Notes: a model not told the origin generated them from the letters alone. DNA of 64,000 bases from Thermoproteota archaeon (GCA_032249235.1 JAVVGF010000003.1:32001-96000); one strand, 5' to 3'. Positions 50,132 through 54,958 are shown, numbered from the stretch's first letter. Program-made: numbers and translations.

Positions 50132-50476
50132 TTAATCTTTCAAGAGAGGAATAAATTTTCTTATTTCGTTGATCAATTTTTTTGCAATATTTATGCAATT
50201 GACAGCTAATTCCTCATTGATTTCAATTTCGCTATAATCGGCATCCTTCCTTCTCTCATATAGATAAAAAGCCTGCACAGCTAATTCCTCTTTTCCTAAA
50301 TATTTTAAAATGTTTATCAACTTATCATCTTTCTTAGGTATAGCTGATCTTAGACTTCTGGCTAATAACTCAATTTCTTTTCTAACAGCAAAGTATGAAG
50401 CAGAGACAGCTTTATTGAAACATTTATTCTTTATGTCAATTTCTGCTTCATTTATTAAAGTATCTGCCTTGTTCAT
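50132..50476 (-). CDS. HEPN domain protein
   Basis: FNKAVSASYFA, LYERRKDADY. Confidence 0.8.
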   Translation of the reverse strand: MNKADTLINEAEIDIKNKCFNKAVSASYFAVRKEIELLARSLRSAIPKKDDKLINILKYLGKEELAVQAFYLYERRKDADYSEIEINEELAVNCINIAKKLINEIRKFIPLLKD

Positions 50477-50984
50477 TTTCAGAAATTATGTAGAAGTTTA
50501 TAGAACAGTCATACTTAGAATTTACCTCAAGAGTAGCCTTCGCTATTTTTCTTATTATATCATCACTTTTATACTTAACAATTACTAAAACGTTGCTATC
50601 ATAACCGTTTATTTCTTTTACTTCAAGAATTTCAGGAAATTTCATCAATTTTTCTTTGAATTCCTTCAAGGAATCTTCGCAATCTTTTCTGCTCATTCTA
50701 TAACTCAAAAATGAATCAATAGTGTTCTTATCATTTTCATTAGTTATATAGAAATTTATCGAGCATTTATACTTCGAATTAATTTCTAGAGCAATTTTTG
50801 CTACTCTTTTTATTATCTCGTCTTTTTTATTCCTTACAACCACCAATACGTTACTATCATATATCAAGTCATCTTCTCCTAAACCTATTATCATTATTAA
50901 ATCATTTCCTAATTCATTTCTAAGTCTATCAGCAAACTCATATAATGCTCTCCCCCATTCTTCAGCAAAATTTAGTACGTACAC
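50448..50984 (-). CDS. Tandemly duplicated, degenerate MNT-like protein (HEPN partner)
   Basis: Two copies of YDSNVLV.V..K.D.II...AK..LE.NSKY.CSINFYI. Confidence 0.7.
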   Translation of the reverse strand: MYVLNFAEEWGRALYEFADRLRNELGNDLIMIIGLGEDDLIYDSNVLVVVRNKKDEIIKRVAKIALEINSKYKCSINFYITNENDKNTIDSFLSYRMSRKDCEDSLKEFKEKLMKFPEILEVKEINGYDSNVLVIVKYKSDDIIRKIAKATLEVNSKYDCSINFYIISENEQGRYFNK

Positions 50985-51358: not shown

Positions 51359-51994
51359 CTAATCCTTTTCTTCTTCTAAAACTCTAGCTATGATAGGCTC
51401 TTCAAGGACTATTTTCTCTATTAAAACTTCTTTTTCTTTCTCAAATATTTCTTCACCTAAAACTATTCCTGCAAGCAAAATCGTGCAAATTATGCTAGGT
51501 ATTAATAAGAATTGTGCAAACGTTAAGACTTTGATTGAAGTGTTTCCTAGGAAAACTTGGCCTGCTGAAGTTATGAAATTGTAATCTACTTCTAAGTATG
51601 TGAAAGCTTCTCGAATTGAATAATTTATCAAAGGTATTGGTGAGGTCATTGTTATAATTTGGGAAAAAATTGATGCGATGAAAAGACTTCTAACATTGGT
51701 GCTTTTTATTTTCTTTCTAGCATAGATTATGCTCGTAATTAAAAGAAAAATGCTTGAAGCTAACAAGGGTATTGATTTTAATATGATAGAATCATAAAAT
51801 GGAACCTTTAATTCTTTATCATAATAACTCAGATTATACCAAAGAAGTGCAATATTACCATTTACAATTCCCTTAACTGATATTATTGGAATTATTAAGA
51901 TCAGAATGCTCAATACTGCTGAAACTATTGCGAGAGGTATTTTTAATTTAAGGATAAACTTGCCTGCTTTCATATACAACACCATTTTTAGCAA
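51359..51994 (-). CDS. Hypothetical multi-pass membrane protein
   Basis: About four hydrophobic segments; overlaps the upstream gene. Confidence 0.65.
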   Translation of the reverse strand: MLKMVLYMKAGKFILKLKIPLAIVSAVLSILILIIPIISVKGIVNGNIALLWYNLSYYDKELKVPFYDSIILKSIPLLASSIFLLITSIIYARKKIKSTNVRSLFIASIFSQIITMTSPIPLINYSIREAFTYLEVDYNFITSAGQVFLGNTSIKVLTFAQFLLIPSIICTILLAGIVLGEEIFEKEKEVLIEKIVLEEPIIARVLEEEKD

Positions 51995-52667
51995 ACTTGT
52001 AGTTGTATTGGAAACTTATGTAAATAATACCATTAAATGCATCAGCATTAATTTTAACTGTTTCTCTTGCTTTTACTTTAATTTCTCCTAATTCCTTAAT
52101 GATTGGCAATTGGTTAGTTGAAGGATAGTATAGAATCCTTACATTCGTTAAATTGAAGTCGATGAAATTAGGATTATAAACTTCAACACTTAAATTTCCT
52201 GTTTTAACCAATAAAGGCTTAAATTCTACTGCATATGAGTTATTCCATATTGCAAAGCCTTTGTCTAAAGTTATGTTTATTCTTAAATAAAAGTAGGAAA
52301 CAGAACTATTTGAATAATCATAAAGGATTGGATATATCTCTTTAGGAACAAAAACTATTATTCTATCTTTTTCTGTTTTTGAATTGCAAACAAAGCTGAA
52401 GTTAAAGGCAAATATTAAGCATTTACTTAAAGCTCGTATTTCTAGTTCTTTTATTGTATAATTCAAGTATATTATGCTACCATCTTCAGATAAATTAGTT
52501 GACTTAAGAGCAAAATCTGGCGAGTTATATCTAATAGGCATGTAAGAAGGAAAGAGCATAATGATTAAATCCAAGATGACAAAGATTGCAATTACTGAGA
52601 AAATGATTCTGAAATTTAATTTTTTATTATCATATCTAGAATAGTCCTTGAGCAATGCAGACCCCAT
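51948..52667 (-). CDS. Membrane-anchored, beta-rich extracellular protein
   Basis: One N-terminal transmembrane helix, N-x-S/T sequons, VEVYNPN Ig-like strand. Confidence 0.65.
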   Translation of the reverse strand: MGSALLKDYSRYDNKKLNFRIIFSVIAIFVILDLIIMLFPSYMPIRYNSPDFALKSTNLSEDGSIIYLNYTIKELEIRALSKCLIFAFNFSFVCNSKTEKDRIIVFVPKEIYPILYDYSNSSVSYFYLRINITLDKGFAIWNNSYAVEFKPLLVKTGNLSVEVYNPNFIDFNLTNVRILYYPSTNQLPIIKELGEIKVKARETVKINADAFNGIIYISFQYNYKFAKNGVVYESRQVYP

Positions 52668-52809
52668 TTAATTCGATTTTCCTTAGAAGTAGTTTCCATA
52701 AAAGAATACTTTTAAAATTTTCTAAAAAAAAAAAGAAAAATTTAAAATTTTTTAAAAGAATTCTCGCTATGAAGTGTTTTCTGTAATAAAAATAACGCGT
52801 TGTATAAAG

Positions 52810-52823
52810 GAAAAATTTAAATA
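52810..52823 (+). promoter_or_regulatory. BRE plus TATA box of the putative pilin gene
   Basis: gaaaaa-tttaaata ending about 25 nt before the ATG at 52848. Confidence 0.6.
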
Positions 52824-52847
52824 CTTTTGTTATAAATAATAGCGAAA

Positions 52848-53465
52848 ATGGCTCTAGAAAAGATCAGAAAGAAAGCAAAATGGTTATTAGTAGTATTTGC
52901 TATCGTAGCAAGCATTTCAGTTGTTAATGCAGCTTTATTCGTTTACTACGATGCAAGTATAACTGCACAAGGTCAAAGGCCACCTGTAGTATTTGCACCA
53001 GGAAAAAATGCAAATGGTGCTGATCTTTGGGGTAACACAATAGGTGTAACTATTGATTCAACTAACACAACTTTAACTATAACTGTACATCCAACATATC
53101 GAACTCATTTCTATAGAAACATAACATTAATAGTAAATCAAGATACGGTAAATTCTTATTACTTAGCTTTTAACATAATAACACCTTTCACGAATACAAA
53201 AATAACACAGGCTAAGCTTTTCATAAGAAGTCTCGATGGCTCAACAACATATGCTACAATTAATCTTCTAACTACAGGTGTTCAAGGATGGCCTATTACA
53301 TTGGCTGGAAATCAAAAACTAAGAATTGATTTATTCCTAGTAATAACTCCTGGCGCAAGCGATACTTTCAATAATGCACCATTTGCAAGCGATAGCTGCA
53401 CGCTTCAGTTAGTCTATAGTCCACAAAACGCTGAAACACCACCTGCAAGTAGCTCAGGTCCTTAG
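52848..53465 (+). CDS. Secreted beta-rich protein, candidate major pilin (TasA/AbpA-like)
   Basis: Signal peptide (..SVVNA), N-terminal strand ALFVYYDASITAQGQRPPVVF, Thr/Asn-rich beta strands, no C-terminal anchor. Confidence 0.6.
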   Translation: MALEKIRKKAKWLLVVFAIVASISVVNAALFVYYDASITAQGQRPPVVFAPGKNANGADLWGNTIGVTIDSTNTTLTITVHPTYRTHFYRNITLIVNQDTVNSYYLAFNIITPFTNTKITQAKLFIRSLDGSTTYATINLLTTGVQGWPITLAGNQKLRIDLFLVITPGASDTFNNAPFASDSCTLQLVYSPQNAETPPASSSGP

Positions 53466-53467
53466 AA

Positions 53468-54958
53468 TTGAAAAAGTATCTGATTGCAATTTTTTTCCTT
53501 TTTTTAATTTCCTATTTTCCATTATCAAATTCATCTTCTTTCATATATTATAATTCACAAGTAAATTTATCTGGGCAAAAACCTCCTCTTTTGCTTGATC
53601 CTCCTCCATATACTTATACTTGTACTGGCTTGACTAGAAATAGAACTGCAAATATAACTTATACAGACTTCGAAACTTATCCTTCAGGATGGGCTAGTAG
53701 AGGAGGTGCTTGGAACATTGTATCTGGAGGATATAAAGGTAATGCGATGCAAGGAACAGATAATAATGGCGGAATAGGAGCAGCTTCCCAGTTTTATTAT
53801 AATACTAGTTTGGATACTTATACTAGCCTTTGGGTTACTACTAAAGTTAAATTTGTATCAGGTCCAGGCAGAAACAGGCCAGGTGCACCACCCAATCTTG
53901 TTTATTTCGGACTAGCATTGATTAAATTTGAATTGGATAGACTTTATGAGATTTCAGTAAGTAGAGATGGTTATCTTAATATATGGAGTTATGGTGTAGA
54001 AGCTAGTGGCTGGTCTTTAAGGAGTCGAGTTCCAATTACGGGTTTTAATATAAATAATTGGTACGTTATAGTAGTTTTTTATAACGTAACATCTACTGCA
54101 GTTAATATTTCTGCTTACTTGTATGATACAATTGGGACACCTACTCCTGTTGCACAAACTTCGGCATCTTCAACAAGTGGGAATAAATTCACTCCTGCTT
54201 TCATAGGATTGGAAATTGATGGAGGAAATGGAGCTAGAGCGCTTTATGATGATTTCGAAATCGCTACAAGTGATTTAAGAGTTATTAATTTCAATAGTTT
54301 ACAATCAGGAATGCAAGTTCAAATAATCGATAACTTAAATAATTTAGTTGCGCAAGGAACAGCATCAACGAGTAGCTTAACTTTAAATGTTACAAGCGAC
54401 ATCGTTGTCGGAACAGGCACTGATGGTAGAATTATAATTAAATATCCCAATGGAATTAATTGTTTAATTTTCAACAATCCTACAAGTGATGCAATTCTAG
54501 GAGGAGATACATATAGCTTGGCTACTTCTACGATGACCATAACGATTGATTCAACAAAAACTAGCGCAAATGAAACATTTTATGTTGCAGGAAGCTTGAA
54601 CTATTTTACACAAACTATATTTTTAAACATCACTGTCATCGATACAAATAATTACTATGCTAGCTTAATATTAAATCAAACAGCAAGCACAATTTCGAGC
54701 AATCTCAATGCGAATATAACTTTAGTAAATAGAAATAACTTTAAATCAACGAATATTACTATAATAAATGGAGTTGTAACTAGTAGCACAACAAGTGAAA
54801 TTGTAGTATTTAATTCGAATAACTATATCTTTATAAGTGCAAGATATTCAGCTACCGGTCTTAGTTCAACACTCGTTTTAATACTTCAATATTGTACTTT
54901 ACAAAATTATTCAGGAGCATGTGTACAATATACAATACGCTTAATAATAAATAGCTAA
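53468..54958 (+). CDS. Secreted paralogue of the putative pilin with an inserted ConA/LamG-like lectin domain
   Basis: N-terminus SFIYYNSQVNLSGQKPPLLL. Insert runs YTDFET..GW..GGAW through NNWY.I.V..ALYDDFEI. C-terminus TITIDSTKTS..NITVIDTNNYY resembles the pilin body. Confidence 0.6.
   Translation: MKKYLIAIFFLFLISYFPLSNSSSFIYYNSQVNLSGQKPPLLLDPPPYTYTCTGLTRNRTANITYTDFETYPSGWASRGGAWNIVSGGYKGNAMQGTDNNGGIGAASQFYYNTSLDTYTSLWVTTKVKFVSGPGRNRPGAPPNLVYFGLALIKFELDRLYEISVSRDGYLNIWSYGVEASGWSLRSRVPITGFNINNWYVIVVFYNVTSTAVNISAYLYDTIGTPTPVAQTSASSTSGNKFTPAFIGLEIDGGNGARALYDDFEIATSDLRVINFNSLQSGMQVQIIDNLNNLVAQGTASTSSLTLNVTSDIVVGTGTDGRIIIKYPNGINCLIFNNPTSDAILGGDTYSLATSTMTITIDSTKTSANETFYVAGSLNYFTQTIFLNITVIDTNNYYASLILNQTASTISSNLNANITLVNRNNFKSTNITIINGVVTSSTTSEIVVFNSNNYIFISARYSATGLSSTLVLILQYCTLQNYSGACVQYTIRLIINS

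Follow-up and report, generated by a model that had tools for sequence, protein, structure and literature searches.

A candidate thread-type surface fibre with a lectin-bearing minor subunit encoded by a four-gene locus of a Thermoproteota archaeon

A locus of four genes, designated A, B, C and D, was analysed in a DNA window of 64,000 nucleotides (the whole stretch under analysis) from a Thermoproteota archaeon (GCA_032249235.1, JAVVGF010000003.1:32001-96000). With a probability of about 0.72, these genes specify a surface fibre that is exported by Sec, N-glycosylated and, within the TasA superfamily, part of the thread (Saci_0406) branch. Most likely, the four-gene cluster specifies a thin adhesive fibre with a sugar-binding end piece, which is a variant of the thread and not a new kind of filament. 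The original prediction, made from the sequence alone, of a TasA-superfamily donor-strand fibre composed of a major subunit and a paralogous lectin-bearing minor subunit was supported, whereas its description of the filament as undescribed was not borne out, as A matched the archaeal thread subunit Saci_0406 above AbpA and CanA and the four-gene layout had already been published. The open reading frames (ORFs) were arranged as follows:

52848-53465, plus strand: ORF A, 205 amino acids (aa)
53468-54958, plus strand: ORF B, 496 aa, located 2 nt past the stop codon of A
51948-52667, minus strand: ORF C, 239 aa, divergent from A
51359-51994, minus strand: ORF D, 211 aa, overlapping the end of C and divergent from A
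52668-52847: divergent intergenic spacer between C and A, 180 bp, AT-rich

No Pfam or NCBIfam family match was obtained for any of the four proteins. Protein A could be divided into three parts:

aa 1-28: signal peptide, placed by sequence alignment with Ala at position -1
aa 29-46 (approximately), 52932-52985: donor strand
aa 47-205: jelly-roll body

The assignment of A was based on both sequence and structure comparisons. A phmmer search of the PDB with A alone returned 7pnb_A, the Saci_0406 thread filament of Sulfolobus acidocaldarius, over the full length (E 0.0012, aa 7-201 versus 2-202). A search over 1.84 billion representatives (E<=0.001) yielded 101 cluster representatives, nearly all of 170-215 aa, and the A-family profile (66 sequences) detected 7pnb_A with E 2e-12 (50.7 bits) and 8rzl_C, from the updated thread structure, with E 6.5e-8. 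Beyond 7pnb and 8rzl, the profile matched nothing in the PDB at E<=1, AbpA and TasA included. The AlphaFold2 (AF2) model of A had a predicted local distance difference test (pLDDT) value of 93.8, and 7pnb_A was ranked first by Foldseek (E 3.1e-8). In VIA-align, Z was 15.8 for 7pnb (root-mean-square deviation, rmsd, 2.9 Å; 164 of 183 residues), 12.6 for AbpA (7ueg), 7.9 for both CanA and the Tafi pilin 9p0a and about 6 for chaperone-usher pilins, every match below AbpA having Z <8. Residues 29-204 of the model superposed on residues 24-206 of the 7pnb chain, so that the jelly-roll head and the extended N-terminal tail could both be superposed and the alignment began at the first mature residue of each protein. 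On the basis of the profile match to 7pnb and the first rank in both Foldseek and VIA-align, A is a Saci_0406 homologue from the thread branch of the TasA superfamily.

The thread itself was described as a chain in which Saci_0406 subunits are held together by donor-strand complementation and, in addition, by an isopeptide bond that connects Asn57 in subunit n with the amine at the N-terminus of subunit n+2 (Gaines et al. 2022, PMC9715654). In the A family, Ala was present at position -1 in 63 of 66 members, and a predicted Sec signal peptide with a signal peptidase I site directly precedes the putative donor strand. The N-terminal strands were free in the AF2 models of both A and B, and neither model took the form of a self-complete monomer. 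The alignment of the family also revealed a conserved C-terminal tail, S-P-x-x-x-E-T-P-P (aa 194-205 of A), which lies near a putative O-glycan position of Saci_0406 according to the 2024 thread paper (PMC11607397).

The second protein encoded on the plus strand, B, had a more complex architecture:

aa 1-22: signal peptide
aa 23-40, 53534-53587: donor strand
aa 41-58, 53588-53641: first pilin strands
aa 59-269, 53642-54274: concanavalin A (ConA)-like lectin or carbohydrate-binding module (CBM) jelly roll
aa 270-350, 54275-54517: small beta domain
aa 351-496, 54518-54955: pilin body

It had been proposed that A and B share an N-terminal strand and a body, which in B are separated by about 300 aa including a ConA-like segment, and that both carry N-glycosylation sequons. 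All these features were recovered. BLASTP aligned A with B across the signal peptide and strand (E 0.003), and hhalign of 66 A-like against 41 B-like sequences gave a probability of 96.6% (E 6.1e-10, 46 columns) for this shared N-terminus. The similarity of the bodies was weak in BLASTP alone (E 0.31), whereas the profile-profile comparison of A aa 55-205 with B aa 345-496 reached a probability of 97.1% (E 5.1e-11, 122 columns); the same A body profile gave 2.1% and 0.3% with the other two domains of B. B is therefore a homologue and paralogue of A carrying an insertion of about 290-300 aa, made up of the jelly roll and the small beta domain. The jelly roll begins only past strands 41-58, which places the insertion within the pilin fold and not between separate domains. 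Sequons (N-x-S/T) numbered 2 in A and 14 in B, with a further 8 in C and 3 in D.

The AF2 model of B had a pLDDT of 92.5 and a predicted template modelling score of 0.85, and only aa 21-34, the presumed donor strand, fell below 50. The inserted domain (aa 59-269) matched 236 chains at Z>=8, the best values being 18.2, 17.6 and 17.4. The first of these was CBM66 (4b1m, rmsd 2.5 Å, 158 aa); C-terminal domains of glycoside hydrolase family GH43 and the lectin domain of galactocerebrosidase followed with Z 17-18, peanut lectin had Z 14.9, and Foldseek agreed on the ConA-like fold. A GH16 glucanase reading of the jelly roll was not favoured on fold scores, as GH16 chains (Z about 13) ranked below CBM and lectin domains. 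A fold in common does not by itself demonstrate function; the domain may bind carbohydrate, and the conserved acidic residues D67, E69, D98, D261 and D269 could fit a metal or sugar site.

Homologues of B (60 at E<=0.001) were all annotated as hypothetical, none having a Pfam domain on record, and their source metagenome-assembled genomes were assigned to Desulfurococcaceae, Ignisphaera, Zestosphaera, Acidilobaceae, Fervidicoccaceae, Sulfolobales, Bathyarchaeia and Nezhaarchaeota. In a survey of 401 genomes sampled across the phylum, B was matched in 49 genomes at E<=1e-10, and full-length B (E<=1e-100) was present in 22. Many other surveyed genomes contained only the lectin-plus-mid module, inside larger proteins. 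This module (profile positions about 74-375) also occurred within proteins of 560-1190 aa away from thread-like loci (e.g. G125:C11:40768-41676 and G323:C1:235150-236049). Genus g45 contained it in 13 of its 17 genomes, several g8 genomes had it as well, and it looks like a surface-adhesin module common to several proteins.

The interaction of the two subunits was modelled with A aa 29-205 and B aa 23-496. The complex scored 0.91, compared with 0.02 for the best of three controls; among solved complexes 116 of 157 attained that mark, and among mismatched pairs 2 of 215. Since a like complex, 7pnb, has already been solved, the score is to be read as likeness and not as binding. Contacts agreed between the runs by at least 98% and the partner pLDDT was at least 92. 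In the model, the B strand (aa 23-40) contacts aa 74-90 and 172-193 of A and lies between A strands 77-83 and 182-184, with which B aa 32-37 pair. The C-terminal pilin domain of B abuts A, and the own strand of A is not among the named contacts. According to this model, B would give its N-terminal strand to the groove of A.

The linked divergent genes had been described as encoding membrane proteins, in agreement with the predictions obtained here. Protein C was predicted from its sequence to be a type-II-like protein with a short cytoplasmic N-terminus, one transmembrane (TM) segment and a beta-rich, glycosylatable ectodomain containing an NPN motif. Among its five close relatives (E<=0.001), the 372-aa protein P0166 (36% identity, 92% coverage) carried an N-terminal archaeal-type signal peptidase I domain (TIGR02228, 57.7 bits; cut-off 51.85 bits), and the same domain with 60.2 bits preceded the C match (BLASTP E 1e-4) in L040:1796-2887 of genome G003. 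In these fusions of about 370 aa, the peptidase forms the N-terminal half, and the motifs SxSMxP, VHR and GDN, which we take to be the catalytic boxes of signal peptidase, were visible in the alignment. C itself gave no signal peptidase match in Pfam or NCBIfam and corresponds to the C-terminal TM segment and ectodomain of the fusions, without the peptidase domain.

The absence of a signal peptidase from the window, also noted in the original prediction, held true. No such domain was matched elsewhere in the window, which lies on contig C3, and TIGR02228 matched the assembly (1.43 Mb, 18 contigs, 91% complete) once, on contig C6. DUF5305 (PF17231) was matched neither in the whole assembly at E<=1 nor in 16 C-type proteins at E<=0.1. 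Among the entries of a protein atlas, C was nearest to unnamed archaeal clusters (0.90-0.91), with LEA_2 at 0.84 as a weak lead only. The G+C content of the G003 contig carrying L040 (G003:C5) was 42%, in comparison with 32% for the window, despite the grouping of both in the same genus; the contig may be a binning contaminant, and because of this mismatch the L040 locus is best treated as belonging to another lineage. The G043 contigs (L041, L116 and L118) had 63-64% G+C.

For protein D, the sequence predicted four TM segments, a pair of beta-like outer loops, each about 30 aa long, and an acidic cytoplasmic tail; its true start is probably Met8 (51973), as indicated by comparison with P0168. 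The D family could be aligned with the first 215 aa or so of 19 long (>640 aa) B homologues (hhalign 96.4%, E 1.3e-9, 137 columns), and BLASTP placed D at the same N-terminal position of P0013 (E 7e-4). D was fused ahead of B in 19 of the 41 aligned B homologues. At the fusion junction, position -1 is kept small (Ala in 29, Gly in 6 and Ser in 2 of the 41), and the conserved S-V-F-x-Y-Y-P comes next. Such a signal-peptidase-type site, together with the dedicated peptidase gene adjoining B in relatives, favours cleavage of D from B.

The gene neighbourhood was surveyed in 19 loci around full-length B genes, in which ORFs were scanned with purpose-built hidden Markov models. A adjoined B in 15 loci, and a signal-peptidase or C-type ORF adjoined B in 13. 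Of these peptidase ORFs, 12 scored above the TIGR02228 cut-off, the thirteenth being shortened by the choice of ORF start, and the C-family model matched the C-terminal half of 11. D was present in 14 loci, either free-standing after the peptidase gene (7/19) or fused before B (7/19). Two gene orders recurred, namely A, peptidase-C, D-B and A, B, peptidase-C, D. Relative to them, the window locus is rearranged and its C is without the lost peptidase domain, and the same holds for the same-genus genome G001, where C and D are likewise adjacent and overlapping. In G001, a third pilin-like gene (L039:8729-9274, 181 aa, A-profile E 1e-32) was located directly past B, a position taken in the window by a gene for a transporter of the major facilitator superfamily (MFS). 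Two A-type genes preceded B in locus L112.

These data are consistent with the following course of assembly. Signal peptidase I would cleave A past Ala28, and the glycosylated mature protein (aa 29-205) would then insert its N-terminal strand into the open groove of the next A, giving a thin head-to-tail polymer resembling beads on a string. The strand of B would enter the groove of the first A, so that B would occupy and cap the groove end of the fibre, most likely the distal one, where it would serve as both nucleator and sugar-binding tip adhesin. C and D would form a membrane module in which the removal of signal peptides is coupled to donor-strand release, hand-over and assembly; in this genus, where C is without a peptidase domain, the cleavage could be performed by the single genomic signal peptidase I encoded on contig C6. 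The fusions of peptidase with C and of D with B suggest such a coupling of cleavage and strand hand-over at a C/D membrane platform. In this scheme, homologies, folds, gene fusions and synteny are results of the analysis and the entry of the B strand into A comes from a model, while polymerisation, the place of B at the tip, sugar binding and the functions of C and D are inferred.

The position of B is less certain than the fibre itself, a place at the distal tip being about as likely as not. The polarity of the thread and its assembly pathway were stated to be unknown by Gaines et al., who left both polarities open (PMC9715654, Fig. 4 legend). The lectin domain of B argues for a position at the outer end, which in turn favours their hypothesis 2, with tails directed toward the cell and growth at the base. 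A bolder version is doubtful as a whole. In it, C and D would constitute the membrane assembly platform of thread fibres, made up of a beta-ectodomain, joined in relatives to signal peptidase I, and of a 4-TM protein that often forms one polypeptide with the tip subunit; each cleavage would release the donor strand at the membrane surface and pass it directly into the groove of the next subunit while that is still tethered, the fibre would grow at its base without chaperone, usher or ATP, the D-B polyprotein would mark the start of the fibre and the polarity would be settled with the tails toward the cell. The thread papers describe this membrane assembly platform as still unknown (PMC9715654, PMC11607397).

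The same fibre could also be oriented the other way, with B as a cell-proximal nucleator or anchor resembling TapA or AbpB, held by D and left uncleaved in the fused forms, its lectin domain gripping the glycosylated S-layer of its own cell rather than foreign surfaces, while secreted A self-assembles at the distal end. In chaperone-usher pili, a subunit that acts only as a strand donor, like PapH, sits at the base, and the fusion of D directly upstream of B (7/19 loci, 19/41 aligned homologues) would also suit an anchor. TapA was indeed described as an anchoring and assembly protein (PMC9245690), and this orientation is one of the two left open for the thread (PMC9715654). However, the fused junctions retain a signal-peptidase-type site followed by S-V-F-x-Y-Y-P, and a dedicated peptidase gene adjoins, which favours cleavage over permanent attachment. 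Moreover, the laminin-G (LamG)-bearing TafC of tafi pili was modelled at the outer tip (PMC11821415), and distal growth beyond the S-layer would presumably be hard to sustain in flowing hot water. Such an arrangement with B at the base is thus regarded as unlikely.

A reading without any polymer is very improbable. In it, A and B would be secreted monomers or dimers that retain a thread-like fold, complement it with their own strand and either bind glycans or associate with the S-layer, and C and D would be unrelated neighbours. The missing Pfam and NCBIfam matches of A-D and the solitary B genes of 3/19 loci would fit such a picture, but A is homologous along its full length to a solved filament subunit, the donor-strand motif is conserved in both the A and the B family, the heteromeric strand-insertion model is confident with clean controls and recurrent fusions link C to signal peptidase and D to B.

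Several observations weigh against the assignment of the locus to a thread-type fibre. Published Saci_0406 homologues were reported to share an identical mature N-terminus, D-V-I-Y-Y-Y, with its conserved Asp (PMC9715654), whereas the A family has [S/A/G]-V-F-V-Y-Y-P and A itself A-L-F-V-Y-Y-D; none of the 66 members has Asp at +1, where Ser was counted in 30, Ala in 17, Gly in 13, Asn in 4 and Tyr and Thr in 1 each. The residue aligned with the isopeptide Asn57 of Saci_0406 is Asn63 in A, but it is kept in 27/66 members only. The C and D families gave hhalign values of 2.7-7.3% and 0.8-0.9% with the canonical thread 1-TM and multi-TM proteins, respectively, the alignments being small; as no similarity to the canonical accessory proteins was detectable, the equation of C and D with saci_0407 and saci_0408 is an argument from layout only. 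At the profile level, the C ectodomain resembled neither the pilin body (0.1-0.3%) nor the mid and lectin domains of B (0.1-1.1% over all three comparisons), so that the idea of C as a TafF-like acceptor or anchor of pilin type gained no support from profiles. B stood alone within about 7 kb in 3/19 loci, and in G001 the C-D pair was on a different contig from A-B. The high score of the A-B model may reflect prior exposure of the predictor to 7pnb, the solved thread structure, and the evidence for assembly is throughout homology or modelling.

The genes flanking the locus encode a HEPN protein, a chlorite-dismutase-like protein, DUF4147/MOFRL, the MFS transporter, a GlgX-type debranching enzyme and PaREP1. 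Because they are unrelated, the unit was delimited to the four genes A-D. TATA-like boxes, according to what we take to be the archaeal consensus, were located about 30-40 nt upstream of the start codons of C and A; a sigma-70 promoter and terminator scan of the spacer carries no meaning for an archaeon. In the hot-spring metatranscriptome library X1, contigs 90-99% identical to the window covered A and ran across the A-B junction (window 52890-54249), which was spanned by one contig of 1181 nt. Such contigs give a weak hint that A and B are expressed, and show neither a single transcript nor expression levels. No X1 contig was found over C (51948-52667) and cover over D was low, contig depth not being valid for ranking genes. 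Beside the locus (window 50132-50984, minus strand), a 114-aa ORF with a HEPN domain (Pfam, 26.2 bits) overlaps a 178-aa ORF composed of two similar halves without a clear family, and the two may represent a HEPN and partner pair adjoining the fibre locus.

The significance of the locus stems from the role of threads and other TasA-like fibres as major adhesive and biofilm structures of archaea. The natural fusions of peptidase with the C-type ectodomain and of D with the minor subunit provide testable candidates for the assembly machinery, and the lectin domain of the minor subunit, which argues for a tip position, provides one for fibre polarity. The 22/401 carriers include complete genomes of lineages where cultured species may exist. 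A lectin-bearing tip subunit and a dedicated peptidase are already in print for tafi (PMC11821415), and dedicated signal peptidases have also been described for AbpX loci (bioRxiv 10.64898/2026.01.04.697558). In the full-text searches and the passages covered, no account of this operon type was found for the thread branch, nor was a lectin insertion inside a pilin fold, a peptidase-C fusion or a D-B fusion found described. Relative to the published systems so covered, the new elements are the lectin inside the pilin fold of B, C as the ectodomain of the peptidase fusions of relatives, and the D-B fusion. Sleutel et al. (2025) mapped 0406 homologues across GTDB (PMC12518558), and their map may include this A family.

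The locus can be compared with several known fibre systems, among them chaperone-usher type 1 pili (FimA rod, FimH two-domain adhesin). The principle is similar, in that Ig/jelly-roll subunits are chained through donor strands and a subunit with a lectin and a pilin domain sits at an end. The similarity is not put forward as homology (Z about 6), and neither chaperone and usher nor an outer membrane is present here; moreover, FimH possesses a groove without a donor strand, while B does carry such a strand.

TasA/TapA/SipW of Bacillus subtilis and AbpA/AbpB of Pyrobaculum (7ueg) likewise use jelly-roll subunits polymerising by donor-strand complementation, with a minor protein proposed as the nucleator through strand donation, and the Bacillus operon holds a SipW-type peptidase. 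The A model resembles AbpA (Z 12.6), yet the A profile detected neither AbpA nor TasA by sequence. Unlike B, neither TapA nor AbpB is paralogous to its major subunit, and no Peptidase_M73 match was obtained at this locus; for the archaeal bundling pili, the report cited describes no dedicated peptidase as found (PMC9245690). AbpX loci were described as containing tip proteins, signal peptidase I and, as an accessory, a DUF5305 protein that in some cases forms a fusion with the peptidase (bioRxiv 10.64898/2026.01.04.697558). Membership in AbpX, as characterized there, was rejected: besides the missing Peptidase_M73 match, the donor strand is without the AbpX aromatic first residue and acidic residue. 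AbpX structures were not among the structure-search matches of this locus.

The Tat-fimbria (tafi) of haloarchaea has the same set of parts. It was described as comprising the pilins TafA/E, the tip subunit TafC with a laminin-G-like domain, which gives its strand, the dedicated signal peptidase TafD, the DUF5305 protein TafG and the anchor TafF (PMC11821415, PMC12337348). Common to both systems are the donor-strand major pilin, a tip subunit combining a pilin-like part with a ConA/laminin-G-like domain and N-terminal strand donation, a dedicated signal peptidase I accompanied by a beta-domain accessory, and proteins with one TM segment and an ectodomain of jelly-roll type, the last being putative at this locus. 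Differences concern the export route (Tat in tafi, Sec here) and the place of the lectin, which follows the pilin domain in TafC and is inserted between the first strands and the remaining pilin body in B. The fold match of A to the Tafi pilin 9p0a was weak, and the DUF5305 of tafi gave no match in this genome at E<=1.

The closest system is the archaeal thread (saci_0404-0408; 7pnb and 8rzl), for which six Acidianus, Aramenus and Vulcanisaeta-type loci stood in for the S. acidocaldarius genes. Next to the subunit gene lies co-transcribed Saci_0405, with the same fold and an N-terminal tail, without an acceptor site and proposed as a cap; saci_0407 and saci_0408 have another promoter, with roles given as unknown (PMC9715654), and the 2024 update still calls the neighbour genes elusive (PMC11607397). 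In the Vulcanisaeta-type loci L050, L054 and L055, co-oriented thread-like genes (212 and 335-342 aa) were accompanied by 1-TM and multi-TM proteins and a 178-aa pilin-like gene. In the g8/g33 loci L043, L045, L046 and L049, an A-like gene of about 185 aa was found with proteins of 460 aa and 650-706 aa, the largest of which repeats the same N-terminal strand, and a winged helix-turn-helix protein was encoded upstream in L043.

A and the thread subunit differ in that they share only about 20% identity, with different mature N-termini and a partly conserved isopeptide Asn. In B, the lectin and beta-domain insertion is found together with a clear signal peptide; Saci_0405, in contrast, was described as a 0406-like fold without a predicted Sec signal. 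Relatives of this locus possess a dedicated signal peptidase, which has not been reported for threads. On the other hand, A and the thread subunit are homologous along their full length, have the same fold and nearly the same size (205 versus 206 aa), and both carry a Sec/signal peptidase I signal peptide, a free N-terminal donor strand and N-glycosylation sequons. The layout of the cluster is also the same: beside the subunit gene lies a paralogue in the same orientation, with a tail at its N-terminus, and two further genes have a promoter of their own (saci_0405-0408). The Aramenus locus L057 shows the same divergent order as the window, with the subunit on one strand and, opposite to it, genes for a 1-TM and a multi-TM protein.

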